A stretch of DNA of 64,000 nt, taken from assembly GCA_963668695.2 (NCBI GenBank), contig CAXXLQ010000004.1:3552001-3616000 (forward strand). Direction: 5' to 3'. The DNA is from Vicinamibacteria bacterium (GTDB taxonomy: Bacteria; Acidobacteriota; Vicinamibacteria; Marinacidobacterales; Marinacidobacteraceae). The notes under the pieces were generated by a model that worked only from the letters and a program-made list of their open reading frames with translations, did no database searches and was not told where the DNA came from. Below, one piece after another: positions 24,379-53,810 of this stretch (the stretch's first letter is position 1; each line of letters starts with the position of its first letter). Position numbers and translations under genes: made by a program.

Positions 24379-24577
24379 AACAGCCGGTGGTGGAACCCGG
24401 GTGAGCGCCGAGAGCGGCGAGGCCCAGTTCTCCCGGTGGGGGTCCGGCTGACAAGGCGCGTGAGGGAGGAATACCGAGCGTATTTCGACCCAAACGCAAC
24501 GCCGAGCGCCGCAAAGCGACGCGGTTCAGACGGGATGGATCGCCGCTCGAACGCCGCTTGGGTTTCACCAGGCTGTT
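24379..24577 (+). mobile_element. MITE family A copy carrying one micro-module
   Basis: AACAGCC...GGCTGTT termini and conserved core; abuts the stop of the M28 peptidase. Confidence 0.8.
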
Positions 24578-26189
24578 AAGGGCGATCGGCTTGGCGGGCG
24601 GCGCGGAACTCGCTGGTCTCGCTCCATTCGGGCCACCCGTCGGAGTCGGCGAGGCCGCGGCCCATCCGGTAGAGGAATTCCAGGTCGTCCACCATCCCCG
24701 AGAGGTCGTACCAGTCCTCCACCTCGTCGCCGGGTTTGTGGTACGCCTCGGCGACGTAGGTGGCACGGACCTCCATGCCGAACCCTTCGGGCTTGCCGAT
24801 GAAGTCCACCCCGCCGTCGGGATAGAACGCCGGGATGCCGACCTTCGCGAATTCGAAGTGGTCGGAACGGTAGTAGTAGCCGTTTTCGGGTTCCGGGTCC
24901 GGGCGCAGCTCGCGGCCGAGCTCGGCGGCGGCCGCCCCGGCGATGTCATCGAGTTCGGACTGGCCGAGGCCTACGACGGTGATGTCGGTCGTGCGTCCCC
25001 ACACGTTCAGGCCGTCCATGTTGAGCGCCGCCACCGTCTCGGCCGCCGGATAGAGCGGGTTCTGGGCATAGTGGCGCGAGCCGAGCAGTCCCTGCTCCTC
25101 CGCGGTAACGGCCAGGAACAACACGCTGCGGCGGAGAGGCCCCTCGGCCGCGAACGCCTCGGCAAGCCCCAGCAGTCCCGCCGTACCGGTCGCATTGTCG
25201 AAGGCCCCGTTGAAGATGTTGTCGCCCTCCATCCCCACCGCAGTGCCGAGGTGATCCCAGTGCGCGGTGTAGATGACCGTCTCGCCGGGCGCTTCGGTTC
25301 CGGGAAGGCGCGCCACCACGTTGTTCGAGTCGATCTCGCGGTGCGAGGTTTCGAGCGCGAAGCTCACGGGAATACCGAGCGGCATGGGCGTGAACTCCGG
25401 GGCAGTAGCCGCCCCGCGAGCTTCCTCGAAGTCCATTCCCGCGGCGCTGAAGAGCGCGACCGCCTGCTCCCGGGAGATCCATCCCTCGACCTCGAGGCGG
25501 TCCATGTTCCCGCCGGGGGTGCGCAGGTCGAACTGCTCCCCGGTCCACGAGCCGCTCACCACTTCCCACGGATATCCGGCGGGACCCGTCTCATGGACGA
25601 TCAGCGCTCCGAGCGCTCCCATCGCGGCGGCCTTTTCGAATTTGTAGGTCCAGCGGCCGTAGTAGGTCATGGCGTCGCCGCCGAAGTGGTGTTCTCCGGG
25701 CGGGTCGTTCACCAGCACCACCAGGATCTTGCCCGTGAGGTCGGCATCTCCGAAGTCGTCCCAGCCGTACTCCGGCGCCTGGACGCCATAGCCGACGAAG
25801 AGCAACTCTCCGGACGCCCCCACCTCGGAGACCACCCGCTTGGTCCAGGCCACGAAGTCCACTCCCGCCTCCCAGTCGCCGCCCGGGTCCGAGGAGGCCG
25901 CCATGGTGATGGCGGTGGAGCCCACGAGGGGTACTGCCTGAACCCAGGTCCCGTCCGGATTCCCGGGCTCGAGTCCGAGTTGCTCGAACACCCCGCTCAG
26001 GTAGGCAACGGTCTTCTCCTCTCCGGGAGAAGCCGGTCCCCGCCCGCCGAACTCGTCGGAAGCCAGGGTGGAGATGTGCGCCAGGAGACGGTCCTCGGCG
26101 AAGCGCGGCCCGGACTCGCCGCAGCCGGCGAGCGGCAGGACTGCCGTGAAGACGGCGGCGGAAACCACCGGAAACAGGGAACGAAGCAT
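24576..26189 (-). CDS. M28 metallopeptidase lipoprotein with PA domain
   Basis: LAGC lipobox; LASD...GR; TAHWDHLG, NGA.DNA.G, TAEEQGL, RSDH, YH. Confidence 0.92.
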   Translation of the reverse strand: MLRSLFPVVSAAVFTAVLPLAGCGESGPRFAEDRLLAHISTLASDEFGGRGPASPGEEKTVAYLSGVFEQLGLEPGNPDGTWVQAVPLVGSTAITMAASSDPGGDWEAGVDFVAWTKRVVSEVGASGELLFVGYGVQAPEYGWDDFGDADLTGKILVVLVNDPPGEHHFGGDAMTYYGRWTYKFEKAAAMGALGALIVHETGPAGYPWEVVSGSWTGEQFDLRTPGGNMDRLEVEGWISREQAVALFSAAGMDFEEARGAATAPEFTPMPLGIPVSFALETSHREIDSNNVVARLPGTEAPGETVIYTAHWDHLGTAVGMEGDNIFNGAFDNATGTAGLLGLAEAFAAEGPLRRSVLFLAVTAEEQGLLGSRHYAQNPLYPAAETVAALNMDGLNVWGRTTDITVVGLGQSELDDIAGAAAAELGRELRPDPEPENGYYYRSDHFEFAKVGIPAFYPDGGVDFIGKPEGFGMEVRATYVAEAYHKPGDEVEDWYDLSGMVDDLEFLYRMGRGLADSDGWPEWSETSEFRAARQADRP

Positions 26190-26307
26190 CGAAGGTTCTC
26201 CTCGGGAAGGGAACAAAGTCTGCCAGAATCTCGTCTTTCTCTGAGGTCCGCGCAGCCGAGCGGATTTTCATCGGTCCGGAGGTTCCTCCGGAAACAGGAG
26301 CCTCTCG

Positions 26308-26796
26308 ATGCCGACTTCCCCTTCCTCCACCTGGGCGCTGGTTCGCACGCCGGTCCTGATCACGCTCGGGGTCACGGCTCTCCGCCTGCTGGGCGCCCTC
26401 GGCGGCCTGCCGGATTTCCTCGTGAACCGTGAGGCCGGCGGTACCGGCGCCATCATCGGGATCGTCTGGCTGGCTCCGATCTTCGCGTTCTGGTTCGGGC
26501 GGCAACACGCCCGGTCGGGAAACACCGGATTCGTTGCGGCGCTCAAGACGAACTTCGTCTACGGAATCGGCGCCCGGATCCCGGTCATCCTCATCATGCT
26601 CTTCGCCACCCTCGGCGACTGGGGCACCCACTACGACGCTTATCCGCCGGACATGGAAGCGACGATGGGCCTCATGGGTCAGTGGTTTTGGGGCGGCGCT
26701 ATCCCCCAGGTCGTCTTCTGGGTCGGCCTCTGGACCACGCTCCTCGGCGGCCTCATCACCTGGCTCACCGCGAAGTTCACCTCCCGGACCGCTTAA
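26308..26796 (+). CDS. Hypothetical membrane protein
   Basis: About 4 TM helices, WGTHYD motif, typical codon usage. Confidence 0.7.
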   Translation: MPTSPSSTWALVRTPVLITLGVTALRLLGALGGLPDFLVNREAGGTGAIIGIVWLAPIFAFWFGRQHARSGNTGFVAALKTNFVYGIGARIPVILIMLFATLGDWGTHYDAYPPDMEATMGLMGQWFWGGAIPQVVFWVGLWTTLLGGLITWLTAKFTSRTA

Positions 26797-26802
26797 CAGC
26801 CG

Positions 26803-30348: not shown

Positions 30349-31136
30349 TAGCGGCCGGTGGTGGAACCCGCGTGAGCGCCGAGGCCGGCGAGGCCCAGTT
30401 CTCCCGGTGGGGGTCCGGCTGACAAGGCGCGTGAGGGAGGAATACCCCGTGTATTTCGACCGAAACGCAACGATGAGCGGCGCGAAGCGACGCGGTGAAC
30501 AGCCGGTGGTGGAACCCACGTGAGCGCCGAGGTCGGCGAGTTCTCCCGGTGGGGGTCCGGCTGACAAGGCGCGTGAGGGAGGAATACCCCGTGTATTCCG
30601 ACCGAAACGCAACGATGAGCGGCGCGAAGCGACGCGGTTCAGCCGGGATGGATCGCCGGCCGAGCCCCCACCGGGAGAACTGGGCCGCGTGGGTTCCATC
30701 ACCGGCTGTCTGGCCGGGATGGATCGCCGGCCGAGCCCCCACCGGGAGAACTGGGCCGCGTGGGTTTCATCACAGGCTGTCTGGCCGGGATGGATCGCCG
30801 GCCGAGCCCCCACCGGGAGAACTGGGCCGCGTGGGTTTCATCACAGGCTGTCTGGCCGGGATGGATCGCCGGCCGAGCCCCCACCGGGAGAACTGGGCCG
30901 CGTGGGTTTCATCACAGGCTGTCTGGCCGGGATGGATCGCCGGCCGAGCCCCCACCGGGAGAACTGGGCCGCGTGGGTTTCATCACAGGCTGTCTGGCCG
31001 GGATGGATCGCCGGCCGAGCCCCCACCGGGAGAACTGGGCCGCGCGGGTTTCATTACAGGCTGTTAGGCCGGGATGGATCGCCGGCCGAGCCCCCACCGG
31101 GAGAACTGGGCCGCGTGGGTTTTGCCACCGGCTGCT
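30349..31136 (+). repeat. Array of family A MITEs ending in 7 x 71-bp tandem repeats
   Basis: Two near-full units, then a unit whose module starts at 30665, 30736, 30807, 30878, 30949, 31020 and 31091. Confidence 0.92.
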
Positions 31137-31155: not shown

Positions 31156-31899
31156 TTAGCGGCTCGTGACCAGAGTCGCGAACTTCTCGCTCTCGAGACG
31201 AGCCGCCAGCGCCCGGGCGGCCTCGCGGCTCTCGAACTGCCCGACCCGGACCCGGAAGATCCCGGCCGGAGTGCCTTCGAGGTACCCCTCGATTCCCCGC
31301 GCCGCGAGCTGTTGCAACATCCGCTCGGCGGCCGACCGGTCGCGGAAGGCCGCAACCTGAATGGTGAACTTCCCACTGCCGGGTCGCGTTGGCCGGTCGG
31401 CCGTGCGTGGCGGCGCCGGGGTGGCGGCGGCGGTACGCGGCGACGGCGAGGCGGCAGCGGCACGCTGCGATGGGGCCGCGAGGGTCCGGCCCGAGAGCTG
31501 TTCCGGACTGGTGGAAGCCGTGCGGGGCGGAGGCCTCTGAGCCTCGGCCGGCCGGGGCGCCGGTGAAGTCGAGGCGGCCGGCGAAGCCGCCCGCCGAACC
31601 GGAGCGCGCTCCGGCGTCCTGGCGGCAGGTTGCTGCTCGGACCGGATGGGGAGGCGAAGCGCGTCTTCCGCGGGCGCCTCGGCGACGGCGACGGCGGGAG
31701 TCCGCGCCGGCGCGGGCACCGGAACCGGGTTTGTGCGACGGGCCATCACCGCGTCCGCCGCACCGGGCGCCATCCCGCGTCCAATGACGATCCCCCCCAC
31801 GAAAACGCCCACTACGATCACGATAAGCAGGCCGAACATCAACACGAGTTGCCGCGTGGTGAACTGGACGTCGTAGTGATCGCTGTCGTGGCCGTTCAT
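31156..31899 (-). CDS. SPOR-domain cell-division protein (FtsN/DedD-like)
   Basis: N-terminal TM, Pro/Ala linker, FTIQVAAF..FRVRVG.F.SR..A. Confidence 0.85.
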   Translation of the reverse strand: MNGHDSDHYDVQFTTRQLVLMFGLLIVIVVGVFVGGIVIGRGMAPGAADAVMARRTNPVPVPAPARTPAVAVAEAPAEDALRLPIRSEQQPAARTPERAPVRRAASPAASTSPAPRPAEAQRPPPRTASTSPEQLSGRTLAAPSQRAAAASPSPRTAAATPAPPRTADRPTRPGSGKFTIQVAAFRDRSAAERMLQQLAARGIEGYLEGTPAGIFRVRVGQFESREAARALAARLESEKFATLVTSR

Positions 31900-32015
31900 C
31901 AGAAATCCCTCCGGGTGGGTGGGGCGCCCAGGCGCCGGAACGGCACCTCCCCGCACCCCCGTGCCGTCACACTAACAGAAGTTACGAGGAATTTCTAAAG
32001 CGATACTTGAGGTTT

Positions 32016-32340
32016 TAACAGCCTGTGGACAAAGTGACGTGAGCGCCGAGAGCAGCGAGGCGCCCCGCTGACAAGGCGCGCGAGGGAGGAGCCCCCACCG
32101 GGAGCACTTGGGCCAGTGACTTTGTCTACAGGCTGCTTAGTAGCCTGTGGTGAAACCCACGTGAGCGCCGAGGCCGGCCAGTTCTCCCGGTGGGGGCGAG
32201 GCGCCCGGCTGACAAGGCGCGTGAGGGAGGAATACCCGGTATATTTCGACCGAAACGCAACGCAGAACACAGCGAAGCGGAGTGGTTCAGCCGGGATGGA
32301 TCGCCGGTTGAACGCCGCGTGGGTTTCGCCACCGGCTGCT
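32016..32340 (+). mobile_element. Two adjacent family A MITEs (one internally deleted)
   Basis: TAACAGCCTGT...ACAGGCTGCTTA followed by TAGCCTGT...CCGGCTGCT. Confidence 0.8.
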
Positions 32341-32382
32341 CACGGCGCGGCTCCGCCAGCGGAGCCGCGCAGCTGCGGCGTG

Positions 32383-33177
32383 TCAGTCCTTGGAGGAATC
32401 CCCGCTACCCGTGGGCGTGGGCGTGGGCGGCTCGAGGAAGGGTCTTATCAGATCGAGCGGGAGGGGAAAGATGATCGTCGAGTTCTTCTCCGAGGCGATT
32501 TCGGTGAGCGTCTGGAGATAGCGGAGCTGGGCGCCCAAGGGGTGCTGACCCACGATTGCGGCGGCCTTGGCGAGCTGCGTCGAGGCCTGGAATTCGCCTT
32601 CCGCGTGGATGACCTTGGCCCGCTTCTCCCGCTCCGCTTCGGCCTGCCGGGCAAGCGCCCGGGTCATGTCGGCGGGCAGGTCCACATGCTTGACCTCAAC
32701 CGAGGCCACCTTGATGCCCCAGGGGTCGGTGCTCTTGTCGAGGATCTCCTGCAACCGGATGTTGAGCTGTTCGCGCTGCGAGAGGAGATCGTCCAGTTCC
32801 ACTTGGCCGAGCACGCTGCGGAGCGTGGTCTGCGCGAGCTGCGAGGTGGCATACAGGTAGTCCTCGACTTCGATGATCGCCCGGATGGGGTCCACCACCC
32901 GGAAGAACAGCACGGCGTTCACCTTCACCGAGACGTTGTCGCGGGTGATGATGTCCTGCGGCGGCACATCGAAGGCCACCAGACGAAGGGTTACCCGCAC
33001 CATCCGATCGATCGGGGAGAAGACCAGAACGAGGCCAGGCCCCTTGGTGGCCTTGAGGAGCTTGCCGAACCGGAAGACGACGGCGCGCTCGTACTCGTTC
33101 AGGACCTTGATCCAGTTGAAGACGAAGATGGCCGCGAATGCGAGGGCGACCAGAGCTCCCAGGGAAAGTCCGAACAT
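32383..33177 (-). CDS. SPFH/slipin (stomatin-like) protein
   Basis: [10 protein letters not shown]; [11 protein letters not shown]; QAEAERE.RAKVI.AEGE. Confidence 0.95.
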
Positions 33178-33180
33178 GAT

Positions 33181-34557
33181 TCAGCTCCTTGTTTTGGAGA
33201 CGGCGGAGGGATTCGCGTCACGGGCGCCGTCCGGGCCCGGTGCGGCGGCGGAGCCGACTTGGAGGGTCAACCCCTCCAGGAGGGCGAGGACGCGCACGCG
33301 CTCACCCTCGCTGACCGCGCCGGCGGAGGTGGCATCCCAGAACTCGCCGTGGACGAATACCTTGCCGGCGCCGCCGGGGCTGATGTCGGTGTAGGCGGTG
33401 GCCACCAGACCGATCATGCCCTCCCGGCCGCTTACCGCGGGGCTCCTCTGGGAGCGGAGCACCAACTGGCCCAGGAAGAACACCAGGCCCACGAAAACCA
33501 GGACGGACGGAATGACGAGGCCCCAAGTCAAGTTCAATGCGGGTGTCGGAAGGGATTGCTCTTCGAAGAAAAAGAGGAGTCCAATCGTGAGGGCGACCGC
33601 TCCCGACAACCCCATTATGCCGAATGACGGGGTGAGCGCCTCGGCGGTGAGAAGACCGATCCCGGCGAGGAGCAAGAGCACCCCAAGGAGACTGACCGGC
33701 AGGAAGTTGAGTCCGAAAGCCGCCAGCAGCAGCGCGATGCCTCCCAAAATCCCCGGGATGAGCAGGCCGGGGTTCGAAAATTCGAGGTACAGGCCGAGCA
33801 GGCCGATCATTCCCAGCAGCACGGCCAGATTCGGGTTGGCGATCACCGACAAGGCCCGATCGCGGAAGCTCATTTCGGTCTGCACGACGATCGCGTCGGC
33901 GGTATCGAGCACTACCTCGGAGCCGTCGATCCGGGTCACCGTCCGGCCGTGGATCGCAGCCAGAAACTCCTCGGTGTCGCCAGCCATGAGGTCGATCAGA
34001 CCGGCTTCCAGCGCCTCGGACGCCGTCCAGCTTCGAGCCTCGGTCACCCCCTGCTCGGCAAGCGCGACGTCGCGTCCACGGCGCTCGGCGATCGACCGGA
34101 GGTAGGCGGCGGCGTCGGACTCGACCTTCCGGCTCAGGGTCTCGGGCATCTCGCCGCCGGTCCCGGAAATCGGGGTGGCCGCTCCCATGTTGGTGCCCGG
34201 CGCCATCCCCGAGATGTCGGCGGCCAGGGTGATCAGGTATCCGGCGGATGCGGCCCGGGAGCCGGCCGGACCGACGAAGACGGCCACCGGCACCTCGCTG
34301 TTCAGGATCGCCTCGATGATCTCCCGCATCGAGGTGTCGAGGCCGCCGGGGGTGTCGAGCCGGATCAGTACGAGCCCGGCGCCCGCTTCTTCGGCTGCGG
34401 AAATGGTGGCGACCACCTGACCCGCCGATACCGAATGGATGATGTCCACCACGTCCACCTGATGGACGTCCGGAGCCGCCGCCGAAGCCGCCGGCGCGGC
34501 GCAGACGGCAAGGCACACCCCGACCAGCGAAAGGACGGAGGTCTCGGACGACAGCAC
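33181..34557 (-). CDS. nfeD: NfeD membrane serine protease
   Basis: LDTPGG, AASAG, MAPGTNMGAA.P; C-terminal OB-fold (GKVFVHGE.W). Confidence 0.93.
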   Translation of the reverse strand: MLSSETSVLSLVGVCLAVCAAPAASAAAPDVHQVDVVDIIHSVSAGQVVATISAAEEAGAGLVLIRLDTPGGLDTSMREIIEAILNSEVPVAVFVGPAGSRAASAGYLITLAADISGMAPGTNMGAATPISGTGGEMPETLSRKVESDAAAYLRSIAERRGRDVALAEQGVTEARSWTASEALEAGLIDLMAGDTEEFLAAIHGRTVTRIDGSEVVLDTADAIVVQTEMSFRDRALSVIANPNLAVLLGMIGLLGLYLEFSNPGLLIPGILGGIALLLAAFGLNFLPVSLLGVLLLLAGIGLLTAEALTPSFGIMGLSGAVALTIGLLFFFEEQSLPTPALNLTWGLVIPSVLVFVGLVFFLGQLVLRSQRSPAVSGREGMIGLVATAYTDISPGGAGKVFVHGEFWDATSAGAVSEGERVRVLALLEGLTLQVGSAAAPGPDGARDANPSAVSKTRS

Positions 34558-34559
34558 TC

Positions 34560-35036
34560 TCAGGAGGCTTTCCGCTCGTGAATGGTGCGGAGTTCTCGGA
34601 TCCCGAGCTCCCGCTCCCCCGCCGGCGTGTGGACGTTCACCTCATCTCCCACCCGGGCTCCCATGAGCGCCCTGCCGATCGGAGATCCGGTGGACACCTT
34701 GCCGACCGCGGGTTCCGCTTCCTCGCTGACCACAAGTTCGTACCGGGACTCCTCTTCGGTGTCCAGATCCACCACCACGACCTCACTGCCGAGCGACACG
34801 CGATCCGCCGGAATGTTGTCCAGGCTCACCATGGACAGAACCGCGAGACGTCGCTTGAGTTGCGCGAGACGGACGGCCACGAAGGCTTGGCGGTCCTTCG
34901 CGGCTTCGTACTCCGCGTTTTCGGAAAGGTCGCCGTGCTCGCGAGCTTCCTTGATCTGTTTGGGAAGGTGCAGATGCAGTTCTTGCTCGAGTTCCCGCAC
35001 TTCGGCCTCAATGCGGACGCGGAACGCAAGAGTCAC
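34560..35036 (-). CDS. greA: Transcription elongation factor GreA
   Basis: AREHGDLSENAEY; S..SPIGRALMG...GD.V; start uncertain. Confidence 0.93.
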   Translation of the reverse strand: MTLAFRVRIEAEVRELEQELHLHLPKQIKEAREHGDLSENAEYEAAKDRQAFVAVRLAQLKRRLAVLSMVSLDNIPADRVSLGSEVVVVDLDTEEESRYELVVSEEAEPAVGKVSTGSPIGRALMGARVGDEVNVHTPAGERELGIRELRTIHERKAS

Positions 35037-35226
35037 TGTTGCTGAAAGCCTTTCTGGAACGAAACCAAACCGATTCAGAATAGCACCGTCGGCACCCCGT
35101 TCGTGCGGCGGAGGGCCGCCGGAAGGAGTCCGGGACATCCGGGCGAGCCGCCGCTCTTGCGGCGGGCATGGCCAGCGGGCATGATCCCCACTCCGAAATC
35201 AATGGTGCAGCCGAGGGAGGTTCTCC

Positions 35227-35880
35227 ATGCGACACATTTCTAGCCGCCACTCGACCAGGCGGTTGCCACGGTGGCTGTCCGGCGCTCTGGCCCTCGGGCT
35301 CGGCGCGGGGTTGGCAACGGTCGCGGGAACGCCTGAGGCCGTGGCGCAGGACGTCTCACTCAGGGTGGGAGACAAGGCTCCCATGTTCCCGAATCCGCTG
35401 CCCTCGACCGCGGGCGAATCGGCCGGCGCGGTGAAGCTCGATCTGCAGGCCGCACTGGGAAAGAAGAACATCGTCCTGGCGTTCTACGTGGCCGACTGGA
35501 CTGGTGGTTGAACGCTTCAGTTTTCGTCCTACAAGGACGACATCCAGAAGTTTCTGGATGCAGAAACCCAAGTCTTCGGAATCAGCGTCGATACGCCGTA
35601 CTCCCAGTGGAATTGGCTGCAAAGCGTCGGCAAGGACTCCGGCATGATGGTGGAAGCGGCGGCTTCGGGCGAGCTGCCGGGATTGGTCCTGCTCTCGGAT
35701 CGCCAGTCGGAAGTGGTGGGCGCCTACGGAGTGAAGCCACTCGAGATCAACGGGGCGACCTACGCCTCCCGCGCGACCTTCGTGATCGATCGCGAGGGCG
35801 TGCTCCGCTACGCCAACTACGACTACCAGATCCGTGACGACTACGAGCCGCTGATGGAAGTCCTGGCCGGACTCGAGTAG
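35227..35880 (+). CDS. Peroxiredoxin/AhpC-TSA protein with in-frame TGA (probable selenocysteine) at 35509-35511
   Basis: LRVGDKAP..LAFYVADWTGG-TGA-TLQF..GISVDT..LLSD....V..YGV..RATFVID..G: one frame to TAG at 35880. Confidence 0.85.
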
Positions 35881-43254: not shown

Positions 43255-43687
43255 CCGAGTTCGAACCGGGGGAGTTCGAACCGGGGGAGTTCGAACCGGG
43301 CGGCCGGGAACCGGCCGGAACCATGTCTCTGCGCGGCAGGCGCACCAAGGCGTTCTTGGCCCGTTCACTCAGCGCGTTGTCCTCCCGCGAGAGCTCCCGA
43401 TGAATGAACTCGGTGAACTGGGTGATCTCTTCCTGCATGCGCTGCATCTTCGTCCGCATGTTGAGAATGATGTCCACCCCGGCCAGATTCACTCCGAGTT
43501 CCCGCAGGTTGAGGATGGTCTGGAGCTGTTCCAGATCGTCATCGGTATAGACGCGGGTGTTCCCGTCTGTGCGCGACGGGCGGAGCAGGCCTTCGCGCTC
43601 ATAGAGGCGAAGGGTCTGCGGATGGATCTCGAACAGTTCGGCGACCGCGCTGATCATGTAGACGCCCTTGCGTCGCTCGGCGCTCAT
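43205..43687 (-). CDS. hspR: Heat-shock repressor HspR (MerR family)
   Basis: YMISAVAELF.IHPQTLRLYEREGL..P.RT.G.TR.Y; LGVNLAG; downstream of dnaJ. Confidence 0.9.
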   Translation of the reverse strand: MSAERRKGVYMISAVAELFEIHPQTLRLYEREGLLRPSRTDGNTRVYTDDDLEQLQTILNLRELGVNLAGVDIILNMRTKMQRMQEEITQFTEFIHRELSREDNALSERAKNALVRLPRRDMVPAGSRPPGSNSPGSNSPGSNSDAGSAPGVSPSRPQSS

Positions 43688-43698
43688 GGGGATTGCTG

Positions 43699-43869
43699 GG
43701 AGTCTGTCCCGGTAATGTCGTGAGCACCGAGACAGTCGAGGCACCCGGCTGACAAGGCGCGCGAGGGAGGAATAGCAGCGTTCTTTCGACCAAAGCGCAA
43801 CGAAGAGCGAAGCGGTTCAGCCGGGATGTATCGGCTGTCGAATGCCATGAGATTACCGGGACAGACTCC
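43699..43869 (+). mobile_element. MITE with family A core but different TIRs (GGAGTCTGTCCCGGTAAT)
   Basis: 18-bp IR; ends at the CTAG containing the dnaJ stop. Confidence 0.75.
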
Positions 43870-44990
43870 TAGAGGCGAAGCTTCTCACGGAGCGCCTCGC
43901 GAGGCGACTCCGGATAGCGCTGCTCCAGTTCCCGAACGAGGTCCCGGGACCGATCGTCGCGGATCTCGGGGATGTGAATCCGAACCTCGAGGAAGAGGTC
44001 GCCGCGGCCGTCACCGCGGATAGAAGGAACCCCGCGTCCGGCGAGGCGCAATCGGGTGCCGGGTTGGACTCCCGGTGGCAGCCGCACGGTCACGCTGCCG
44101 GAGAGCGTCGGCACCTCGATGCGTCCTCCGAGCGAGGCCTCCGCGAGGGTCAGCGGCAACGGGCAGATGAGATTGTCGCCGCGGCGTTCGAGAACCGGAT
44201 GGGCGGCTACCTCAACGTACAGCCGAAGATCTCCCGGTGGTTCGCCGGGCAGCCGCTCGTGCCCCTGTCCTTCCACAACCACGGTCGCTCCATCCGCCAC
44301 GCTGGCCGGAACCCGAGCGACGACCCGGACCGCACGGATCCGGCTCCCGCGTCCGGTGCAGGGTGCGCAGGCGGTATGAAACAACAGCCCCTGCCCGCCG
44401 CAGCGGCGGCACGGACGGGCGAACACCATGTGGCCGTAGCGTCGGAGCCGCCGGCCGGCACCGCGACAGGCGCTGCATTCGATCCCCTGAGGGGTGGCTT
44501 CCCCGACCGGACGCTCACCCCGGCCTCCGCACGCGCCGCACGTCTCGCGCCGACTGATCAGGAGCCGGATCTGCTTCCCCTCCAGCGATTCGACGAAGGA
44601 AATCCGGACCCGGGCATGGATGTCGGGATCGGCTTCGGCGGATCCGGACTCGGCCCGCTCGGAGCTGCCGAGAATCTCGTGGAGCGCCCACTCTTCCTTC
44701 GCGTGCTCCTCGCCGAAGTCGAACCCGGCGAAACCGTAGTGAACGCGCTGGACCCGTGCGGGGGTCGGCTCCGTGCCGCCGCGGCAGTCGTATTCGGCGC
44801 GGCGCTCGGTATCCCCCAGCACCTTGAAGGCCCGCTGGATCTGCCGGAAACGCTCCTCGACAACGCGGTCGTTGGGGTTCAGATCGGGGTGCAGGCGCCG
44901 GGCGAGCCGCCGGTACGCCTGGCGGATACGCACCAGATCGGCGTCGCGCCCAACCCCCAGTACCGCGTAGTAGTCGGCAGGCGGGGGCAT
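43869..44990 (-). CDS. dnaJ: DnaJ chaperone
   Basis: J-domain HPD; four CxxCxGxG repeats; C-terminal domain. Confidence 0.93.
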   Translation of the reverse strand: MPPPADYYAVLGVGRDADLVRIRQAYRRLARRLHPDLNPNDRVVEERFRQIQRAFKVLGDTERRAEYDCRGGTEPTPARVQRVHYGFAGFDFGEEHAKEEWALHEILGSSERAESGSAEADPDIHARVRISFVESLEGKQIRLLISRRETCGACGGRGERPVGEATPQGIECSACRGAGRRLRRYGHMVFARPCRRCGGQGLLFHTACAPCTGRGSRIRAVRVVARVPASVADGATVVVEGQGHERLPGEPPGDLRLYVEVAAHPVLERRGDNLICPLPLTLAEASLGGRIEVPTLSGSVTVRLPPGVQPGTRLRLAGRGVPSIRGDGRGDLFLEVRIHIPEIRDDRSRDLVRELEQRYPESPREALREKLRL

Positions 44991-45004
44991 GGGCGCCGAG
45001 TTCT

Positions 45005-45425
45005 CAGCAGCCTGTGGACAGGGTGACGTGAGCGCCGAGGCCGGTGAGGCGCCCGGCTGACAAGGCGCGCGAGGGAGGAATACCCAGCGTATTTCGACCG
45101 AAGCGCAACGATGAGCGGCGCGAAGCGGCGCGGTGAACAACCTGTGGTGGAACCCGCGTGAGCGCCGAGGCCGGCGAGGCCCAGTTCTCCCGGTGGGGCC
45201 AGTTCTCCCGGTGGGGGCCCGGCTGACAAGGCGCGTGAGGGAGGAATACCGGGTGTATTTCGACCGAAACGCAACGATGAGCGGCGCGCAGCGACGCGGT
45301 CAGCCGGGATGGATCGCCGGCTGAACGCCGCGCGGGTTTCATCACCGGGTGTTCGGCCGGGATGGATCGCCGGTCGAGCCCCCACCGGGAGAACTGGGCC
45401 GCGTTACCTTGTCCACCGGCTGCTA
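45005..45425 (+). mobile_element. Tandem family A MITEs between dnaK and dnaJ
   Basis: Two cores plus a 3' partial unit; three micro-modules. Confidence 0.8.
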
Positions 45426-45434
45426 GGTTGGCGA

Positions 45435-47365
<1,931 letters not shown>

Positions 47366-47425
47366 TCAGAACTCCTGAAAAGAAGGGGACCTGGGACCGG
47401 AACGCCAAGTCCTTAGTTAGCCCGG

Positions 47426-47455
47426 ACTATAAGATGTGAGTGATTTCTTGTCAAG
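47426..47455 (-). promoter_or_regulatory. Sigma70 promoter of dnaK overlapped by a HAIR-like HspR operator
   Basis: TTGACA-17 nt-TATAGT; CTTGACA-N7-ACTCACA versus consensus CTTGAGT-N7-ACTCAAG. Confidence 0.75.
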
Positions 47456-47602
47456 GCAAAACGCACCCTGGCAGGACTTCAATCCAGCCCCTCGGCCCGC
47501 ATCCCCCGCCAGCAGGCGGGCCGCCACGTCTATCCACCCGGATGGCGCGCGCAACCGCCCCTCCATCCGGCAGTTCCGCCGCCCTCCGGGCGACGGCAAG
47601 CT

Positions 47603-48493
47603 CTACTGCAGCAGTTCGCGGATGGCCGGTTCGAGTGTCTCCCGCGGCTGGAAGTTCACGAAATGACGCGCGATGGTTCCATCGCGGCCCACGAGGAACA
47701 GGGTCGGAAAGATGTTCACGTTTCCGAGGGCGGCGCGGTTCTCCGCCGTCAGATGGAGGTTCTCGAACGTGACGCCACCCTTCTCCTGGTGCGCCGCCCG
47801 ATCGTCATCGCTGTAGGGCAGCTTGAGCACCCGGTCGGAATTCAGCCCGACGATGGTGAGTCCCTCGTCCGCAAGATCCTGATGAAGCGCCTGGAGCACC
47901 GGGGCGATCTGGACACAGGGAGGACAGTTGGTGAACCACACGTACACGAGCGTCGCGTCGTTCATCAGGTCGCCAATCGCAGCCTCCCCGCCGCCGAACC
48001 TTTCCCCGGCAACCTCCGGAAGGGTGCGGCCTTCCCAGCCCGTGAGGCTCCGGCTCACTGCACGCGCGAACCTTTCGTCGGCCCGGATCAGGTCCTCGTC
48101 GATGGACGCGAGGTTGCCGTCCGCGCCGCGGACCAGGAACTTCGGAACCCGTGGGTCGGACTCCATGATCCGGAGCACGATGTCGGCCGCCTCCTCGCCG
48201 TAGAGTGAGAACTGGCCGGAGATCTCGGTCAGGGTCGGCAGCCGCCCTTCGCGCCCTTCGAACTCCAGAATAAAGAGCGGGGTCCGGAAGAAGATGTCGT
48301 TCAGCCGGCCGAGCGCCCGCTGTTCGTCGGGCGCCTGGAAGCGCTCGACGAGCGCCGAAAGGAGGAGACGCTCCCCAGGCTGCATCGTGTCGCGCACGTG
48401 TTCGAGGATGCGGCGCTCCGCATCGCTGCCCTGCGCGATGGCGACAGCCGGAACTGCGAGGGCGAGGGTCAGGAAAAGGGCGAGATTCGGCAT
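47603..48493 (-). CDS. Exported TlpA-like thioredoxin-fold protein
   Basis: Signal peptide; WFTNCPPC; FPTLFLV..DG. Confidence 0.8.
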   Translation of the reverse strand: MPNLALFLTLALAVPAVAIAQGSDAERRILEHVRDTMQPGERLLLSALVERFQAPDEQRALGRLNDIFFRTPLFILEFEGREGRLPTLTEISGQFSLYGEEAADIVLRIMESDPRVPKFLVRGADGNLASIDEDLIRADERFARAVSRSLTGWEGRTLPEVAGERFGGGEAAIGDLMNDATLVYVWFTNCPPCVQIAPVLQALHQDLADEGLTIVGLNSDRVLKLPYSDDDRAAHQEKGGVTFENLHLTAENRAALGNVNIFPTLFLVGRDGTIARHFVNFQPRETLEPAIRELLQ

Positions 48494-48535
48494 CGGCGCA
48501 TTCTAGTTTTGCCGGCCGGACGTTGTTGTCGGGGT

Positions 48536-48774
48536 TAGCAGCCTGTGGTGAAACCCAGGCGGCGTTCGAGCGGCGATCCATCCCGCCTGAACCGCCCCCC
48601 CACCGGGAGAACTGGCGCTTTGCGGCGCTCGGCGTTGCGTTTCGGTCGAAATACACTCGGGCCAGTTCTCCCGGTGGGGGCTCCTCCCTCACGCGCCTTG
48701 TCAGCCGGACCCCCACCGGGAGAACTGGGCCTCGCCGCTCTCGGCGCTCACCCGAGTTCCACCACAGGTTGCTA
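48536..48774 (-). mobile_element. Family A MITE carrying three micro-modules
   Basis: TAGCAGCCTGTGGTG...CACCACAGGTTGCTA termini. Confidence 0.85.
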
Positions 48775-48848
48775 GACTCGAAAGGGTGTTCGGAGCATCG
48801 AGACATCCCGCCGCGAAGACCCGACCGCACGCCCACGGATGGGCCGCC

Positions 48849-50294
48849 ATGTTGTTGGCCGGTTTGTGGTCCGCCGCCGGTTGCGCCTCCCGGCCCGTGC
48901 CCGAGATCCCCGTGGTTCCCCTGGATGGCTGGGCGTACGTGGAGGGCCGGGCGCCCGTTCCCGGACCCGGGCTCTCCGAAGCGGCGGCGCGCGAACTGGG
49001 GGAGAGTTGGGCCCTCATCGTGGCGGGAAGGCTTGGCGAGGCCGATCTGCAACTCACGCCGCTCCGGGCCATGGCTCCACAGGACCCAGGCGTTCTTTCG
49101 GCCACCGGATTTCTTGCCCTCCGAAGCGGGAACACCTCGGGAGCGGGCGAACTCTTTCAGCAGGCGCTCGCGGCCTCGCCCGAGGACGGCCTCGCCGTAC
49201 TCGGGCGCGTCCTCCTGGTTCTCGACACAGAGGATCCGGAACTGCTCTTCATCCGACTGCAGCGGCTGTCGGAACTGGACCCCGACGCCTCCGTGGTCTC
49301 GGAGCGACTGCCGGGACTGGCCCTGGAAGTAGCGGAAAATCGTCTCGCACGCGCCCGCGAACTTGCGCGTTCTGACGCGCAGAGTCCGCCGGTCGTCGAG
49401 GCCTACCGGGCCGCGCTGGAGGCGATGCCGGACTCCGCCGACCTGTTCCTGGAAGCCGCGGAGGCCGCCGCCGCTGCCGGAGACGGTCGAAGCGCGCGCG
49501 AGTGGTTCGAGGCCGTCACCGCAAATCCCTCAGCGAGCAAGCGTCAGGCACTGGTCGCGGGGCTAACCGCCGCCGAGCTGCTGGCTGACGAGCGGCGGTT
49601 CACCGAGAGCCTGACCCGTCTCGACCAGATCCTCAAGGATCCCGCCGCGCGCGGTTTCACCGATCTGCTGGACCGCGCCGCAGATCTGGAGCGTCGCCTC
49701 GAGGTGGCGAGGCTTTCGGAGCGCTACGCGAGGATTCGCGAAGCGGAACGGGTCACCCGCGAACAGCTCGCCGCGCTGCTGGCGGCCGAGATCGGTGAAC
49801 CCGAAGGCGACGACTCCCGCTCCGCGGACCCGGTCATCGCGATCGATCTCGAGCGGAGCTGGGCCACCAGCCTGATCCAGACGGCGGTCGGCGCCGGCTA
49901 CCTCCGCCTCTACCCCGACCACACGTTCAAGCCCCGTGGCCTCGTGACGCGCGCCGAACTCGCGGAGTCGCTGGCGGCCGCGTTCGGAAGGTTCGACCCG
50001 GAGGCCCGACGCCTGGCGCTGGATGATTCTTCCCGGCTGGAACTGAACGACGTGTCCGCCGGCCACCGCTATCGTGAGGCCGCAGCCATCGCTGCAAAGC
50101 TCGGGCTGCTGAGGGTTTCGGACGAGGGGATGTTCCGGCCGAGCGCTTTCGCCACCGGAGCGGAAGCCGTGAGCGCCGTCCACACGCTCCGGGATCTGCT
50201 CGGAACTGAGGTCGGCGTCAACTCCGGCCGGCGACGTATTCCCGGCCAGCCCGCATCAGCCGAACGAAGGCCTCTTCGTCGTCGTCGTGGATGA
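48849..50294 (+). CDS. TPR- and SLH-domain lipoprotein
   Basis: Lipobox AAGC; helical repeats; YPD.TFKP...VTRAE and F.P....T.AE SLH-like motifs. Confidence 0.75.
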   Translation: MLLAGLWSAAGCASRPVPEIPVVPLDGWAYVEGRAPVPGPGLSEAAARELGESWALIVAGRLGEADLQLTPLRAMAPQDPGVLSATGFLALRSGNTSGAGELFQQALAASPEDGLAVLGRVLLVLDTEDPELLFIRLQRLSELDPDASVVSERLPGLALEVAENRLARARELARSDAQSPPVVEAYRAALEAMPDSADLFLEAAEAAAAAGDGRSAREWFEAVTANPSASKRQALVAGLTAAELLADERRFTESLTRLDQILKDPAARGFTDLLDRAADLERRLEVARLSERYARIREAERVTREQLAALLAAEIGEPEGDDSRSADPVIAIDLERSWATSLIQTAVGAGYLRLYPDHTFKPRGLVTRAELAESLAAAFGRFDPEARRLALDDSSRLELNDVSAGHRYREAAAIAAKLGLLRVSDEGMFRPSAFATGAEAVSAVHTLRDLLGTEVGVNSGRRRIPGQPASAERRPLRRRRG

Positions 50295-51306
50295 CCGCGG
50301 CGAGACGCGAAACGGCGCCCGCGAGATTATGGATCGCTGCCGGTCCGTGCGGGTTCCGCTGCTGGATCTCGTAGTAAAGGTGGGGATTTTCCCGGGCTAC
50401 CGCCGCCGCCACCTTTAGCTGGCGATCGAACGTCACACTCGACAAGCGGGCGAGACGGGGCGCCTGCTCCCCGCTGTCCTGAAGCGCGGTCAGAAAAGCC
50501 AGATTCAGCACGTGGGAGAGCCCGAGGACGTAGGCGATCAGCGGGTCGTGGTCGGCCAGCGGCATTCGCAGAATCTCGGCCATCGTGCCGGCGAACACGC
50601 CGGCCGCTTCTTCGGCGGCTTCGGCGTGGCCGACGTCCATGACCAGGACGTGACAGCCGTGCAGTACGTGGGCGTCGGGCCCGAACATGGGGTGCACCGA
50701 AGCGATCCGGCAGCCGTTTTCCGCCGCCGCCGAGAGCGCCCGCGCCATGGGCGACTTGACGGACGCGATGTCGAAGATGAGGCCCTTCCTCTTTTTCGCG
50801 CCGATTCCCTCAAGCACCTCGACGCTGCTCTGGAGCGGCGCCGCAACCACGGTCAGGGCGAAGTCATCCGGAGTGTCCCGCCAATCGGCAGCGGTGGGAA
50901 CGCCGGGCGGTCCTCCCACCGGATCGGCCACCCGCACGTCGTATCCCTGGGCAGCGAGCAAGCGGCAGAACCACCGGCCCATGCGGCCGCCGCCGCCGAT
51001 GACGAGCGCCGGACGGCCGGCCCCCCGTCCCTGCGCCCGGACGCGGATGTCTTCCTGCCGGGCGAGCGAGGAACGCATGAGAAGCGCGACCAGCTCCGCC
51101 GCCAGGTCTCCCGGAATACCCCTTTCGGCCGCGTGAGATCGCGCGCGCTCCAGGACCCGCTCTTCCTGCGCGGCGTCGTGGATCGGCCGGCCGGCGGCCT
51201 CCTTGAACCGGCCAATCGCCATGGTGAGGGCGTCCCGCCGCGCCCAGGCGTCCAGGATTTCCTGATCCACCGCTTCGAGTGCGGCCCTCAGAGCCTCAAG
51301 ATCCAT
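50218..51306 (-). CDS. tyrA: Chorismate mutase / prephenate dehydrogenase
   Basis: LEALR..L..VD..I..RR; GGGGRMG; DIASVK; HPMFGP; LSH. Confidence 0.9.
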   Translation of the reverse strand: MDLEALRAALEAVDQEILDAWARRDALTMAIGRFKEAAGRPIHDAAQEERVLERARSHAAERGIPGDLAAELVALLMRSSLARQEDIRVRAQGRGAGRPALVIGGGGRMGRWFCRLLAAQGYDVRVADPVGGPPGVPTAADWRDTPDDFALTVVAAPLQSSVEVLEGIGAKKRKGLIFDIASVKSPMARALSAAAENGCRIASVHPMFGPDAHVLHGCHVLVMDVGHAEAAEEAAGVFAGTMAEILRMPLADHDPLIAYVLGLSHVLNLAFLTALQDSGEQAPRLARLSSVTFDRQLKVAAAVARENPHLYYEIQQRNPHGPAAIHNLAGAVSRLAAVIHDDDEEAFVRLMRAGREYVAGRS

Positions 51307-51494
51307 GGGTTGAATGTTAGGGCTCCTGGACCGGCGGACTACGGCAGAAGGAGCGGCAACACCCAGCGAAGAGGAGTTGCCGCTCCGGCTGCTCCGGCAG
51401 TGCCCGTCGCCGGTGCGCTGCCGCGGCAGGGGGAGCGGGGCTGGGACTCGGAGCGAGTGCAGCGCCGTCCCCGCGCTTGCTCGCGGTTGGCGAT

Positions 51495-51870
51495 GGGAGT
51501 TTCGCTGCCATCCGGGCAGCGATGCCGGTCTGAAGACCGGCGCTCCATGCGCTCCTGGGTTGTTTGCGTTGGCCCGGGAGGGTGTTTCGCCGTCCCCGCC
51601 CAGGTCCACGCAATGAGCGTGGACGAGAGCGTGAGCTTCGCGGCCTCGGCCGCGATGCCGGTCTGAAGACCGGCGCTCCTGGAGTTTCGCTGCCCTACGG
51701 CCGCGATGCCGGTCTGAAGACCGGCGTTCCATGCGCTCCTGGGTTGTTTGCGTTGGCCCGGGAGGGTGTTTCGCCGTCCCCGCCCAGGTCCACGCAATAA
51801 GCGTGGACGAGAGCGTGAGCTACGCGGCCTACGGCCGCGATGCCGGTCTGAAGACCGGCGCTCCTGGAGT
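51495..51870. repeat. Cluster of four REP-like palindromes within a ~184-bp direct duplication (family D)
   Basis: GATGCCGGTCTGAAGACCGGCG at 51521, 51654, 51705 and 51839. Confidence 0.85.
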
Positions 51871-51912
51871 TGGCGGCCCGACTAAGATGCCCCCGCCCTC
51901 CGTGGTGGCCCC

Positions 51913-53409
51913 TTGTACCTCCCTTCCCGTTCCGACTTCCGCGCGCTCGCGAAACGCGCGAACCTGATTCCGGTCCGGCGGGAAATCCTCGCCGACTGCG
52001 ACACCCCGGTGTCCACCTTCCTCCGGATAGGGAACCGCGGCCCGGCGTTCCTGATGGAATCGGTCGAAGGCGGCGAGAGCGTCGCCCGATATTCGTTTCT
52101 GGGATCGAGGCCACGAGTCATTGTCGAGAGCCGGGGAAACCAGGTCAAGCGCCGCTATCTGCGCGACGGCCGGACCGAAACCACCGAGAGCGCGGATCCC
52201 CTGTCGGCGCTCCGGGACATGCTTCAGGACGTGGTCCCCGCGAACATCGAGGGTCTGCCCCCCTTCCACGGCGGTTTCGTCGGCTATCTGGCCTACGACG
52301 CGGTACGGCGCTTCGAGCGTCTCCCGGAAAGCGTCGAGGACTCGCTGGGTCTTCCCGATGCGATGTTCCTGTTGGCCGACAACGTGTTGGTCTTCGATCG
52401 CGCCCGCAACGTGATCCAGGTGGTGGTGAACGCCAGCGTTCCCGACGAGAGCCTTGCCGACCAAGCCTACGACGCCGCCGAGGCACAGATCGAGGCAACC
52501 GTCAGGGAAATCCGCGCGCCGCTCCCCTATCGACTGGGCCTGCCGGGGGGCGGTGCGGGAGGCCGGCCGTTCCCCGAGCCGGTGTCCAATACCAGCCGGG
52601 AGCGGTATCTCGAGATGGTGCGCCAGGCCAAGGACTACGTGGCCGCCGGGGACATCATCCAGGTCGTCCCTTCCCAACGCTTCGAGACGCCGCTCACCGT
52701 CCACCCCTTCGACTTCTACCGGGCGCTCCGGGTGGTGAACCCGTCGCCCTACATGTACTACCTCGACTTTGACGGGCTGGTGATCGCCGGAGCATCCCCG
52801 GAAATGATGACCCGTACCGAGGGCGGCTCGATCGAGACCCGCCCGATCGCCGGCACCCGGCCTCGCGGGCGCACTCCCGAAGAAGATACCGCCCTTGCCG
52901 CTGAACTCCTCGCCGACGAGAAGGAACGCGCGGAGCACGTGATGCTCGTGGATCTGGCCCGAAACGATATCGGCCGGGTCGCCAGCTACGGCCGGGTCCA
53001 GGTCGAGGACTTCATGAGCATCGAGCGGTACTCGCATGTGATGCACATCGTGTCCCGGGTGCGGGGAGAACTCCGCCCCGACACGGACGCGTTCGATGCC
53101 CTCCGCGCGACCTTCCCCGCCGGAACGCTGTCCGGCGCCCCCAAGATCCGCGCCATGGAGATCATCGATGAACTGGAAACCGAGCGCCGGGGGGTCTACG
53201 GCGGCGCGGTCGGCTACTTCTCCTACAGCGGCGCCTCCGACACTGCCATCGCGATCCGGACGCTCGTGGCCAAGGACGGCGTCGGCTATTTCCAGGCTGG
53301 GGGCGGCGTAGTAGCGGAGTCCGATCCGGCCTCCGAATACGACGAAAGCTGCCGGAAAGCGGATGCGGTGCTCGCCGCCCTCCGCATGGCCCACCAGGGC
53401 CTCGACTGA
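51913..53409 (+). CDS. trpE: Anthranilate synthase component I
   Basis: LMES, NPSPYM, PIAGT, KERAEH.MLVDLARND, GTLSGAPK. Confidence 0.92.
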   Translation: MYLPSRSDFRALAKRANLIPVRREILADCDTPVSTFLRIGNRGPAFLMESVEGGESVARYSFLGSRPRVIVESRGNQVKRRYLRDGRTETTESADPLSALRDMLQDVVPANIEGLPPFHGGFVGYLAYDAVRRFERLPESVEDSLGLPDAMFLLADNVLVFDRARNVIQVVVNASVPDESLADQAYDAAEAQIEATVREIRAPLPYRLGLPGGGAGGRPFPEPVSNTSRERYLEMVRQAKDYVAAGDIIQVVPSQRFETPLTVHPFDFYRALRVVNPSPYMYYLDFDGLVIAGASPEMMTRTEGGSIETRPIAGTRPRGRTPEEDTALAAELLADEKERAEHVMLVDLARNDIGRVASYGRVQVEDFMSIERYSHVMHIVSRVRGELRPDTDAFDALRATFPAGTLSGAPKIRAMEIIDELETERRGVYGGAVGYFSYSGASDTAIAIRTLVAKDGVGYFQAGGGVVAESDPASEYDESCRKADAVLAALRMAHQGLD

Positions 53410-53413
53410 CGAC

Positions 53414-53810
53414 ACCCGAGGGCAAAGCACCCCGCACTTCACCCAGGATGACACGCACGCCGAATCTGCCGTTTGTTTCGCGTGCGGGGCGCTTTCCCCC
53501 CGGGCAAGCAGCCTGTAGACAGAGTCTCGTGGCGTTCGAGCGGCGATGCATCCCGGCTGAACGGCCCCGCTTCGCGCGGCTCATCGTTGCGCTTCGGTCG
53601 AAATACACCAGGTATTCCTCCGTCGCGCGCCTTGTCAGCCGGGCGCCTCGCCCCCACCGGGAGGACTGGCCGCTCTCGGCGCTCACGCCACTCTGTCCAC
53701 AGGCTACTGGTGGTGCGAATCGCTGCGCGATTCGCACCACCGTTTCCGGCGGGGAGGGGAAACCCCTCCCCGCACCCCTCCCCCGCGGCGCTTCGCGCCG
53801 CGAACGGGAG
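53414..53810. repeat. Family C repeat with a nested family A MITE (53507-53708)
   Basis: Family C halves flank AGCAGCCTGT...ACAGGCTACT. Confidence 0.75.

Follow-up and report, generated by a model that had tools for sequence, protein, structure and literature searches.

In the usual view, mobile DNA depends on ends recognizable to a transposase or recombinase, with a lower size limit of ~50-100 bp. To our knowledge, seemingly mobile units as small as ~20 nt were described just once before, in the cyanobacterial family Nostocaceae. The small dispersed repeats of that family (SDR1-8, attributed to Elhai et al. 2008, Genome Res 18:1484) are said to be 21-27 nt long, to have no coding capacity, to be nested within other repeats, mini-transposons and copies of their own kind, and to have been mobile recently; SDR4-6 reportedly share a secondary structure with compensatory changes. 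SDRs are cited or summarized in passages of three papers (PMC3116915, PMC2884548 and PMC5861425), and the passage in PMC5861425 has none found outside the Nostocaceae. Here we describe a unit of similar size, U (CCCCACCGGGAGAACTGG, 18 nt), in a 64,000-nt stretch of an acidobacterial genome (Vicinamibacteria bacterium, GenBank assembly GCA_963668695.2, contig CAXXLQ010000004.1, positions 3,552,001 to 3,616,000; hereafter the window) and in its relatives. We show that U inserts independently, as a unit of 18-20 nt with junctions that follow a defined rule, and that it has turned over recently and is distributed across a family. On entering DNA de novo, it arrives as a ~20-nt patch in place of 0-4 target bases and lengthens the site by 18 or 19 nt; the targets are repeat copies that were already resident and diverged and, in rare cases, unique genes.

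Compared by description only, the SDRs appear to be the closest known parallel to U. Like them, U is ~20 nt long, present in high copy number, non-coding, confined to one coherent taxonomic group and recently mobile, and it is nested in a larger repeat (family A), in two families of hairpins (B and C) and in tandem runs of up to five of its own units. It differs from them in its host phylum (Acidobacteriota, here with 67% G+C), in its length (18-20 nt as against the 21-27 nt given for SDRs), in its 20-for-2 patch junction and in having in-frame copies in three genes; we also have no evidence for an RNA intermediate of U, and no reverse transcriptase (RT) gene was found with the RVT_1 model in five genomes. 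Copies of U vary too little among themselves to reveal covariation. A literature search, which did not extend to supplements, returned no paper on such repeats in Vicinamibacteria.

There are likenesses to other systems as well. With repetitive extragenic palindromes (REPs), bacterial interspersed mosaic elements and REP doublets (REPINs), U shares its shortness, its extragenic abundance and a modular, mosaic arrangement; its hosts of families B and C are REP-like hairpins, and that of family C is targeted by an IS110-family element, as REPs are. Unlike the units of the REP/REPIN-RAYT system (RAYT, REP-associated tyrosine transposase), U is not palindromic, has no GTAG or CGTC head and inserts into hairpins, and the Y1_Tnp domain was not found in four genomes searched. 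The DNA uptake sequences of Neisseriaceae and the uptake signal sequences of Pasteurellaceae have a core of 9-12 nt and occur at about one copy per 1-3 kb in both orientations. U is likewise an exact short motif, over-represented across a bacterial family, present in both orientations and found as inverted pairs able to form hairpins, but it is longer (18-20 nt), is almost confined to other repeats and arrives as a whole-unit insertion. Insertions made by microhomology or template switching resemble it in having no terminal inverted repeats (TIRs) or duplication, few lost bases, short junction matches, either orientation and a source elsewhere in the genome; these normally vary in source and length, whereas U is the same 18-20 nt every time.

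The genome of the window (G000), which like its relatives comes from an uncultured organism, is a 4.095-Mb assembly in four contigs with a completeness of 91.7%. Searched with the 19-mer CCCCCACCGGGAGAACTGG at up to three mismatches, the window holds 20 matches where 0.01 would be expected, a number reached in none of 100 shuffles, and the genome holds 1,655 (1,123 exact, 403 with one mismatch, 87 with two and 42 with three), a density of about one per 2.5 kb. A preliminary description of the window, made from its letters alone, had counted about 20 copies, in both orientations and at five or more sites of one scaffold; this count stands, and every coordinate that it named except 5348 is U. 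Tandem copies have a period of 18 nt (the longest run, five units, lies at C4:1097379-1097433), and the repeating unit is therefore the 18-nt U. Across 1,525 aligned matches with at most one mismatch, the information content is ~2 bits over the motif and falls to background level 1-3 nt beyond each side, with G at -1 in 88% and [C/G]CC 3' of the motif. U is inserted in either orientation and, as the same description had it, lacks TIRs of its own: its ends, CCCCAC... and ...AACTGG, are not inverted copies. Called open reading frames contain 188 of 1,654 matches in G000, almost all of them at over-extended 5' ends; this count is an upper bound because the caller, a crude GC3-based one, over-extends 5' ends.

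Family A is a ~190-bp repeat with 725 BLAST-defined loci in G000. It looks like a miniature inverted-repeat transposable element (MITE) in its size, its TIRs, its many copies and its presence or absence at individual loci; no transposase was identified for it. The module-free copy at 18278..18474 of the window (plus strand) folds as one long rod hairpin with paired ends (-118.6 kcal/mol as RNA). One whole family-A MITE, at 48536-48772, is absent from the contig of a related strain, which joins 48535 to 48773, direct evidence that the scaffold is or was mobile; its ends, TTA/GCAGCC…GGTTGCTA/GACTCG (slashes at the element borders), suggest TA or TNA as the target.

When 618 family-A copies were aligned to the module-free copy (window 18271-18480), U was found mainly at five sites. 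At S1 (reference ~42-45, ~5 bp upstream of S2) it is in minus orientation in ~200 copies, mostly as +19; at S2 (reference 53, before CCGGCTGAC) it is again in minus orientation, in 189 copies, with +18 in 65 and +36, that is, doubles, in 117. S3 (reference 82, after GAGGGAGGA) has U in the opposite, plus orientation as +18 in ~276 copies, S4 (reference 129, before CGGTTCA) has it in minus orientation as +18 in 54, and S5 (reference 164, near the right end) in plus orientation as +18 in 73; U at S5 is also present in family-A copies belonging to 71-nt tandem arrays. Lesser sites are S6 at reference 150, S7 and a plus-orientation site next to S1. Pairs are often inverted (minus at S1 or S2 against plus at S3) and would form 19-bp stems. 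Outside family A, U occupies the loops of the REP-like hairpins of family B (GCCGGTCTGAAG-A-CCGGC) and family C (GCCG-A-CCGGAGGTCGGC), several other repeats, and a mini-element made of two family-A ends flanking U. Clustering by flanks gave 63 contexts, 39 of them singletons, under a single-linkage rule that fused S1, S2 and tandem copies into one cluster. Two structural accounts of site choice in family A were rejected: the minimum-free-energy fold puts S1-S3 in stems rather than hairpin loops, and quasi-palindromic 'mirror' copying within the rod fits only S2 and S6, which occupy mirror positions, and not S1/S5, S3 or S4.

The genome-wide alignment of filled with empty sites that the preliminary description had called for defines the junctions. 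We matched filled sites to paralogues with identical 12-nt anchors on both sides and obtained 209 filled/empty pairs. The commonest change is from 2 to 20 nt (88 anchor pairs, 476 filled copies), followed by 0 to 18 (28 pairs, 77 copies), 3 to 21 (19 pairs, 235 copies), 1 to 20 (17 pairs, 92 copies) and 0 to 19 (4 pairs, 69 copies); the net gain is +18 in 156 of the 209 pairs and +19 in 36. None shows a target-site duplication; instead, 0-4 nt are replaced, in line with the earlier remark that U often takes the place of a few bases. Thus CGA-AC-GCCG becomes CGA-GCCCCCACCGGGAGAACTGG-GCCG at S5, GGA-ATA-CCG becomes GGA-GCCCCCACCGGGAGAACTGGC-CCG at S3, and AAG-A-CCGG becomes AAG-GCCCCCACCGGGAGAACTGG-CCGG in family B. 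The patch is ~20 nt, [G/A/C]C plus U, with G as the usual first base and A or C less often, and the base 3' of it very often lies within CCGG(G), GCC or CGG. Empty sites keep conserved bases (ATA, AC, GC).

The same unit is found in unique genes. An AcrB-type RND transporter gene of G000 (C4:393184-396339) contains an exact, in-frame copy, which encodes PHRENW; among 17 orthologues the extra 18 nt occur in G000 and its sister species G001 only (15 are without), and the nearest empty form, GAGCCCG-CG-CGGGAT, compares with GAGCCCG-GCCCCCACCGGGAGAACTGG-CGGGAT in G000. The coaBC gene of the congener G010 has gained 18 nt with U on the opposite strand (TSSPGG, one of 13 orthologues), and mfd of another congener, G012, has gained 18 nt that encode PPPGEL (one of 14 orthologues). 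Each of these insertions is a derived state restricted to its lineage and has a length divisible by three, and U therefore enters non-repeat DNA that has no homologous flank. The claim that no copy lies in coding sequence is accordingly right for the window and wrong for the genome, given the one exact in-frame copy in the RND gene; the proposed targeting of structured repeats is a preference only, because coding DNA is hit as well. The idea that U is an excision footprint finds no support, since U does not consist of inverted ends joined together and 12-15 orthologues of the genes have nothing at the site.

Two further observations concern these genes. In mfd of G010, a partial U with one mismatch (net +12) sits exactly where G012 has its full U, whereas no U is present in G007 or in 11 other orthologues; either the site was hit twice, or an old insertion has been lost elsewhere. 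The coaBC gene of G000 (C4:2098461-2099042) has an extra ~36 nt of its own, G-rich and not U, a few codons from the position of U in G010, and the loop seems tolerant of insertions.

U is also turning over between strains. The G000 assembly contains strain-variant duplicates, mostly 98-99.7% identical (C1 and C4:304-421 kb; C3 and C4:3505-3538 kb; C4:13-148 kb and C4:3783-3913 kb), and its reported contamination of 9.3% probably reflects such uncollapsed variants. Over 265,395 aligned bases, these pairs differ by 30 indel pieces of at least 6 nt, and about nine events involve U: S2 is filled in one strain and empty in the other three times, S3 likewise in two adjacent copies, S2 is single versus double twice, one deletion runs between direct U copies at S3 and S5, and one U has lost 15 nt. 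The other indels, judged by eye, resemble tandem-repeat slippage. In the cleanest case, C4:90726 against C4:3864712, ~330 nt are identical but for 18 nt and one adjacent base.

Between G000 and its sister species G001 (187,875 nt aligned, 94-98% identity), some differences consist of U alone, and these go both ways. In one orthologous MITE, S2 (double), S3, S4 and S5 are filled in G000, with five copies of U in all, and no site is filled in G001, with only three junction-near substitutions between the two scaffolds; even with one mismatch allowed, the left arm of the G000 copy occurs nowhere else in the genome. The 61 indels between the two genomes comprise nine of U, seven tandem, 11 pieces of other repeats and 34 others, in classes untidy enough that we do not take them as evidence that U is the sole such module.

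The distribution among relatives indicates the direction of change. U occurs in 15 of 15 congeners searched and in five of nine other genomes of the same Vicinamibacteria family, and in none of 16 genomes of two sister families; the exact 19-mer is common to five genera of the one family. Copy numbers run from 7 to 1,526, apart from a single copy in G020, from another genus, and there are 7-18 copies in G010, G012 and G005 versus 665-1,526 in G008, G004, G001 and G000. G010 has 13 copies of U and at least 51 module-free matches to the ~185-nt family-A scaffold (from 204 candidates), and G020 has its one copy and at least 44 such matches (from 91 candidates); G017, G022 and G024 have neither scaffold nor U. 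Because U-free scaffolds are abundant in U-poor relatives, U is a later addition to the scaffold and not the remnant of a longer ancestor. The majority of copies in G010, G012 and G005 lie in family-B and family-C hairpin loops, and in other genera U prefers other sites, for example S6, where the AT of cagccggg-AT-gcatcgcc is replaced by the same 20-nt patch.

These comparisons bear on the possibility that the U-bearing form is ancestral and the empty sites are deletions, or that U is an artefact of assembly, adapters or polishing, either of which we regard as extremely improbable. Partial deletions of U do occur (the 15-nt loss and the deletion between U copies above), but deletion could not restore the conserved ATA, AC and GC of empty sites, U-free scaffolds dominate G010 and G020, and the gene insertions are missing from 12-15 orthologues; one ancestral position eroded by deletions, the refuting case raised in the preliminary description, is thus contradicted. 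Nothing that we observed supports an artefact. The exact 19-mer occurs in metagenome-assembled genomes (MAGs) of several projects, in short-read (k141) and long-read chromosome-level assemblies alike, under the titles Candidatus Marinacidobacterium sp., Vicinamibacteria bacterium and Acidobacteria bacterium, and Logan contigs from independent public runs agree with unique parts of window 31501-51500 at 0 mismatches and end at repeats. Contigs from RNA libraries extend into two U-bearing MITE ends, which is no demonstration of transcription. Two odd single matches to the 19-mer, on a 6-kb contig of a 'Gammaproteobacteria' MAG (in a family-B context) and on an Acidimicrobiaceae contig, are compatible with mis-binning or chance; by our calculation, 596 Gb should contain a few exact 19-mers.

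Relative to its host repeats, U is either younger or under stronger constraint, as divergence at S5 and S3 shows. In 292 filled S5 copies chosen by their flanks only, 0.31% of U positions are off consensus versus 15.9% of the next 19 scaffold positions, and in 286 copies of S3 the figures are 0.86% for U versus 4.4% and 8.2% for scaffold, whose diversity is equal in filled and empty copies. Across genera, scaffold identity is 77-81% and U is exact. Such a pattern, an exact motif between decaying flanks, could also mean that U is a functional motif held exact by selection or a population-level drive, perhaps as a site for a DNA- or RNA-binding protein or something like an uptake signal, and that its abundance reflects retention and recombinational spread. 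The family-wide distribution, the density of about one per 2.5 kb, the two orientations with frequent inverted pairs able to form 19-bp stems and the presence of ComEC and DprA (found also in U-free G017) are what one would expect. Selection would leave the entry of an 18-nt block into new sites unexplained, however, and known uptake sequences arise by point mutation and not by whole-unit insertion; U-poor congeners thrive with 7-18 copies, U is nearly confined to other selfish repeats, and at S1 it is as diverged as one of its flanks. We therefore consider selection or drive distinctly unlikely as the explanation.

A further alternative is that U entered each site once and that everything else is MITE amplification together with gene conversion or recombination between copies. 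The S4-filled copies do share one scaffold subtype, co-changed bases cluster at several polymorphic sites, an 'A' junction variant at S2 travels with U, and the number of U per copy is over-dispersed (no U 108 times versus 75.5 expected, and four filled sites 8 times versus 2.0). Filled and empty sites occur in nearly all combinations, with 48 patterns among 271 full-length family-A copies (101 copies are without U), pairwise association of sites is weak (phi -0.02 to 0.37), and near-identical scaffolds elsewhere in G000 bear different sets of U. A single entry per site would still require de novo insertion at no fewer than 15 site classes, in 39 singleton contexts and in three unique genes; at S5, conversion tracts would need to end ~5 nt from U (15.9% versus 0.31%), and the orthologous copy that gained five U retained its private left arm. 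This alternative thus looks very unlikely. The contention that simple MITE copying is insufficient and that a second, very small unit is at work is borne out by the U-free scaffolds of relatives, the 48 patterns among 271 copies, the U-only differences between orthologues and the three genes.

As to enzymes, RVT_1 (PF00078), the only RT model used, had no match in G000, G004, G008, G010 or G018 and detected the positive-control genomes; four of these five genomes bear 255-1,526 copies of U. Y1_Tnp (PF01797) had no match in G000 (91.7% complete), G004, G018 or G019. RT and Y1/RAYT were rejected as drivers on these grounds, and the suggestion of RT-driven insertion is not supported; reverse transcription and Y1/RAYT transposition of U are both unlikely. 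Ku is present in five of five genomes tested; since Ku, ComEC and DprA all occur whether a genome is rich or poor in U, none is discriminating. We also rejected the IS110-family element as a source. It is ~2.15 kb long, with one copy in G000 (C4:482399-482872), 11 in G004, 10 in G008, two in G010 and none in G020, and ten copies have ends (TATACCTTTCC...GGTAGAAGGTC) that contain no U. The element merely targets the family-C hairpin, site-specifically at GCCGACCGGAGGTC^ (caret, insertion point), and two copies lie in a hairpin that already had U. Nor is there a multi-copy insertion sequence with U at its end in G000, where the repeats of at least 500 nt are MITE arrays, satellites and repeat-domain genes, with no U match in the eight that we examined. 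The proposed search for U at the ends of a full-length element, IS200/605 included, gave no support for such a source: IS110 ends are without it, and four genomes have no Y1_Tnp.

We favour insertion of U as a patch made by host repair or replication, through a template switch or the capture of a U oligonucleotide at a break, and put the chances that this is correct at about even. The reasons are the absence of duplications and of recognizable ends, the loss of 0-4 nt, the scatter between +18 and +19, the short junction matches and the lack of RT and Y1 in the genomes searched. Of the possibilities raised in the preliminary description, a templated-insertion product is, we infer, the best mechanistic reading. 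U would then be a very small non-autonomous insertion unit, and host replication or repair enzymes would patch it into a break or gap, either from a template or by capturing an oligonucleotide. Any of the numerous copies already present could be the donor, or else a discrete U oligonucleotide, and short matches (CCGG(G), GCC or CGG 3' of the patch, one or two purines 5' of it) would aid the join. Once in place, U could spread by riding on the amplification of its host MITE or hairpin repeat, by transfer between homologous repeat copies, or by tandem duplication with the 18-nt period, and its copies may act as deletion substrates and recombination end points.

Several observations weigh against such a patch model. 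Independent sites all agree on the boundaries of U to 1-2 nt, and no other module behaves in this way; unaided template switching or end joining should be more ragged, and the invariant boundaries therefore indicate a U-specific agent. Random repair does not explain an exact 19-mer in genera whose scaffolds are 77-81% identical, and the 50-100-fold gap in copy number among scaffold-rich congeners looks as if a trans factor were on in some lineages. Ku is found in U-poor genomes too, some U events have co-changed bases nearby that resemble conversion from another copy, and no donor molecule, break or enzyme was observed in this analysis. At S1 (111 copies), where the spacing varies and the G13 variant is common, the divergence of U is 8.4% versus 9.3% and 18.5% for its flanks, so that low divergence relative to the scaffold is not universal.

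Part of this would be accounted for by dedicated, U-specific machinery (a nuclease/ligase encoded by an element or by the host, a recombinase, or a guide or template RNA) that inserts a discrete U and makes it a true SDR-type mobile element with a partner acting in trans. Its appeal lies in the sharp, invariant boundaries, in the use of no other module at many sites and of the same unit in three unrelated genes, in the exact 19-mer of five genera, in the jumps between lineages from 7-18 to 665-1,526 copies, and in a U far less diverged than its scaffold at S5 and S3. No candidate enzyme has come to light, however: RVT_1 and Y1_Tnp are absent from the genomes searched, and IS110, whose ends are without U, does not track U in copy number (one in G000). 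Variable junctions (0-4 nt, +18 or +19, first base G, A or C) are unlike the work of a precise recombinase, and 18-20 nt is too short for protein-binding ends of known kinds. We think dedicated machinery unlikely. The bolder statement that U is a discrete, oligonucleotide-sized mobile element, ~20 nt of DNA or an RNA-templated equivalent, that is produced and inserted by an RT-independent, sequence-specific system of these Vicinamibacteria, one that is active now and has colonized the resident MITEs as a parasite of parasites, is possible but on the whole doubtful.

Within the window, U lies at S2 of a family-A copy at ~24377-24584 (24424..24442, minus strand; GAGG-CCCAGTTCTCCCGGTGGGGG-TCCGGCTGAC), at S2 of a truncated copy (30395..30413, minus) and, with one mismatch, at S2 of the next copy (30537..30555, minus). 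Seven U at S5 occupy 30665..31109 (plus; starts at 30665-31091; repeat families D1, D6 and D8), where the MITE right end is repeated in tandem as a 71-nt unit and each unit has one U. A short family-A copy has U with two mismatches at S3, directly abutting the right end (32092..32110, plus), an architecture like that produced by the strain-level deletion between U copies at S3 and S5. U is at S1 of the full copy 32136-32343 (32178..32196, minus; GCCGG-CCAGTTCTCCCGGTGGGGG-CGAGG). The remaining copies are a tandem double with period 18 at S2 (45181..45217, minus; starts 45181 and 45199), U at S5 of a duplicated right-end unit (45379..45397, plus), three in the reverse-oriented copy 48534-48775, at S4 (48597..48615, plus, preceding CGGTTCA), S3 (48662..48680, minus) and S2 (48710..48728, plus), and a G13 variant at S1 of the reverse-oriented copy 53502-53708 (53651..53669, plus). 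A diverged family-A copy at 43701..43872 (plus; families D4 and D12) has no 19-mer match and is without U.

Two degenerate copies had been proposed outside family A. The one at 62386..62404 (minus) is U with two mismatches in the loop of a family-C hairpin and adds a further independent context; the one at 5348 is a look-alike on the reverse strand (5345-5361), CCCCACCGGGAGAAACC followed by CTCATGATCGGGTC, and belongs to a separate small repeat family. The look-alike occurs only in the genus of G000 (g1), in 10 of its 15 genomes at 1-24 copies each, and not in other U-bearing genera; we rejected this U-like 17-mer as the ancestral source of U, and it is a derivative, because it is confined to that genus. 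Family-B hairpin copies without U (…GCGATGCCGGTCTGAAGACCGGCGCTCC…) lie at 10539-10591 and 51495-51865; in U-poor relatives, most copies of U are in the loop of this repeat. The window opens (1-700) with a long tandem array of a ~32-nt unit (…CCGATCCCGATATAGACGCATGCCCCGG…), and satellites of this kind, 1-2 kb long, recur for example at C4:574312, 2554250 and 2887219. Two ~3-kb segments (38322-39900 and 41257-42490; D10, D11 and D20), 81-86% identical, may be a duplicated gene pair; short G-rich repeats (D19) mark their borders, and public-run contigs show joints in this region. An Rfam scan of the window recognized tRNA only, and a tRNA gene lies at 63213-63285.

U is among the smallest DNA units seen to behave like a mobile element, and if the discrete-element reading is true it would be the smallest mobile DNA with documented insertions into unique genes, able to write six codons into them. 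For work on the mechanism it offers hundreds of filled and empty sites, strain polymorphism, sister species that differ 50-100-fold in copy number, three dated gene insertions and a junction rule. Together with its host repeats, it breaks short-read assemblies of sponge- and marine-associated Acidobacteriota. In the genomes that carry it, U reshapes other repeats, by creating 19-bp inverted pairs, tandem arrays and deletion end points, and it can add six residues to proteins.

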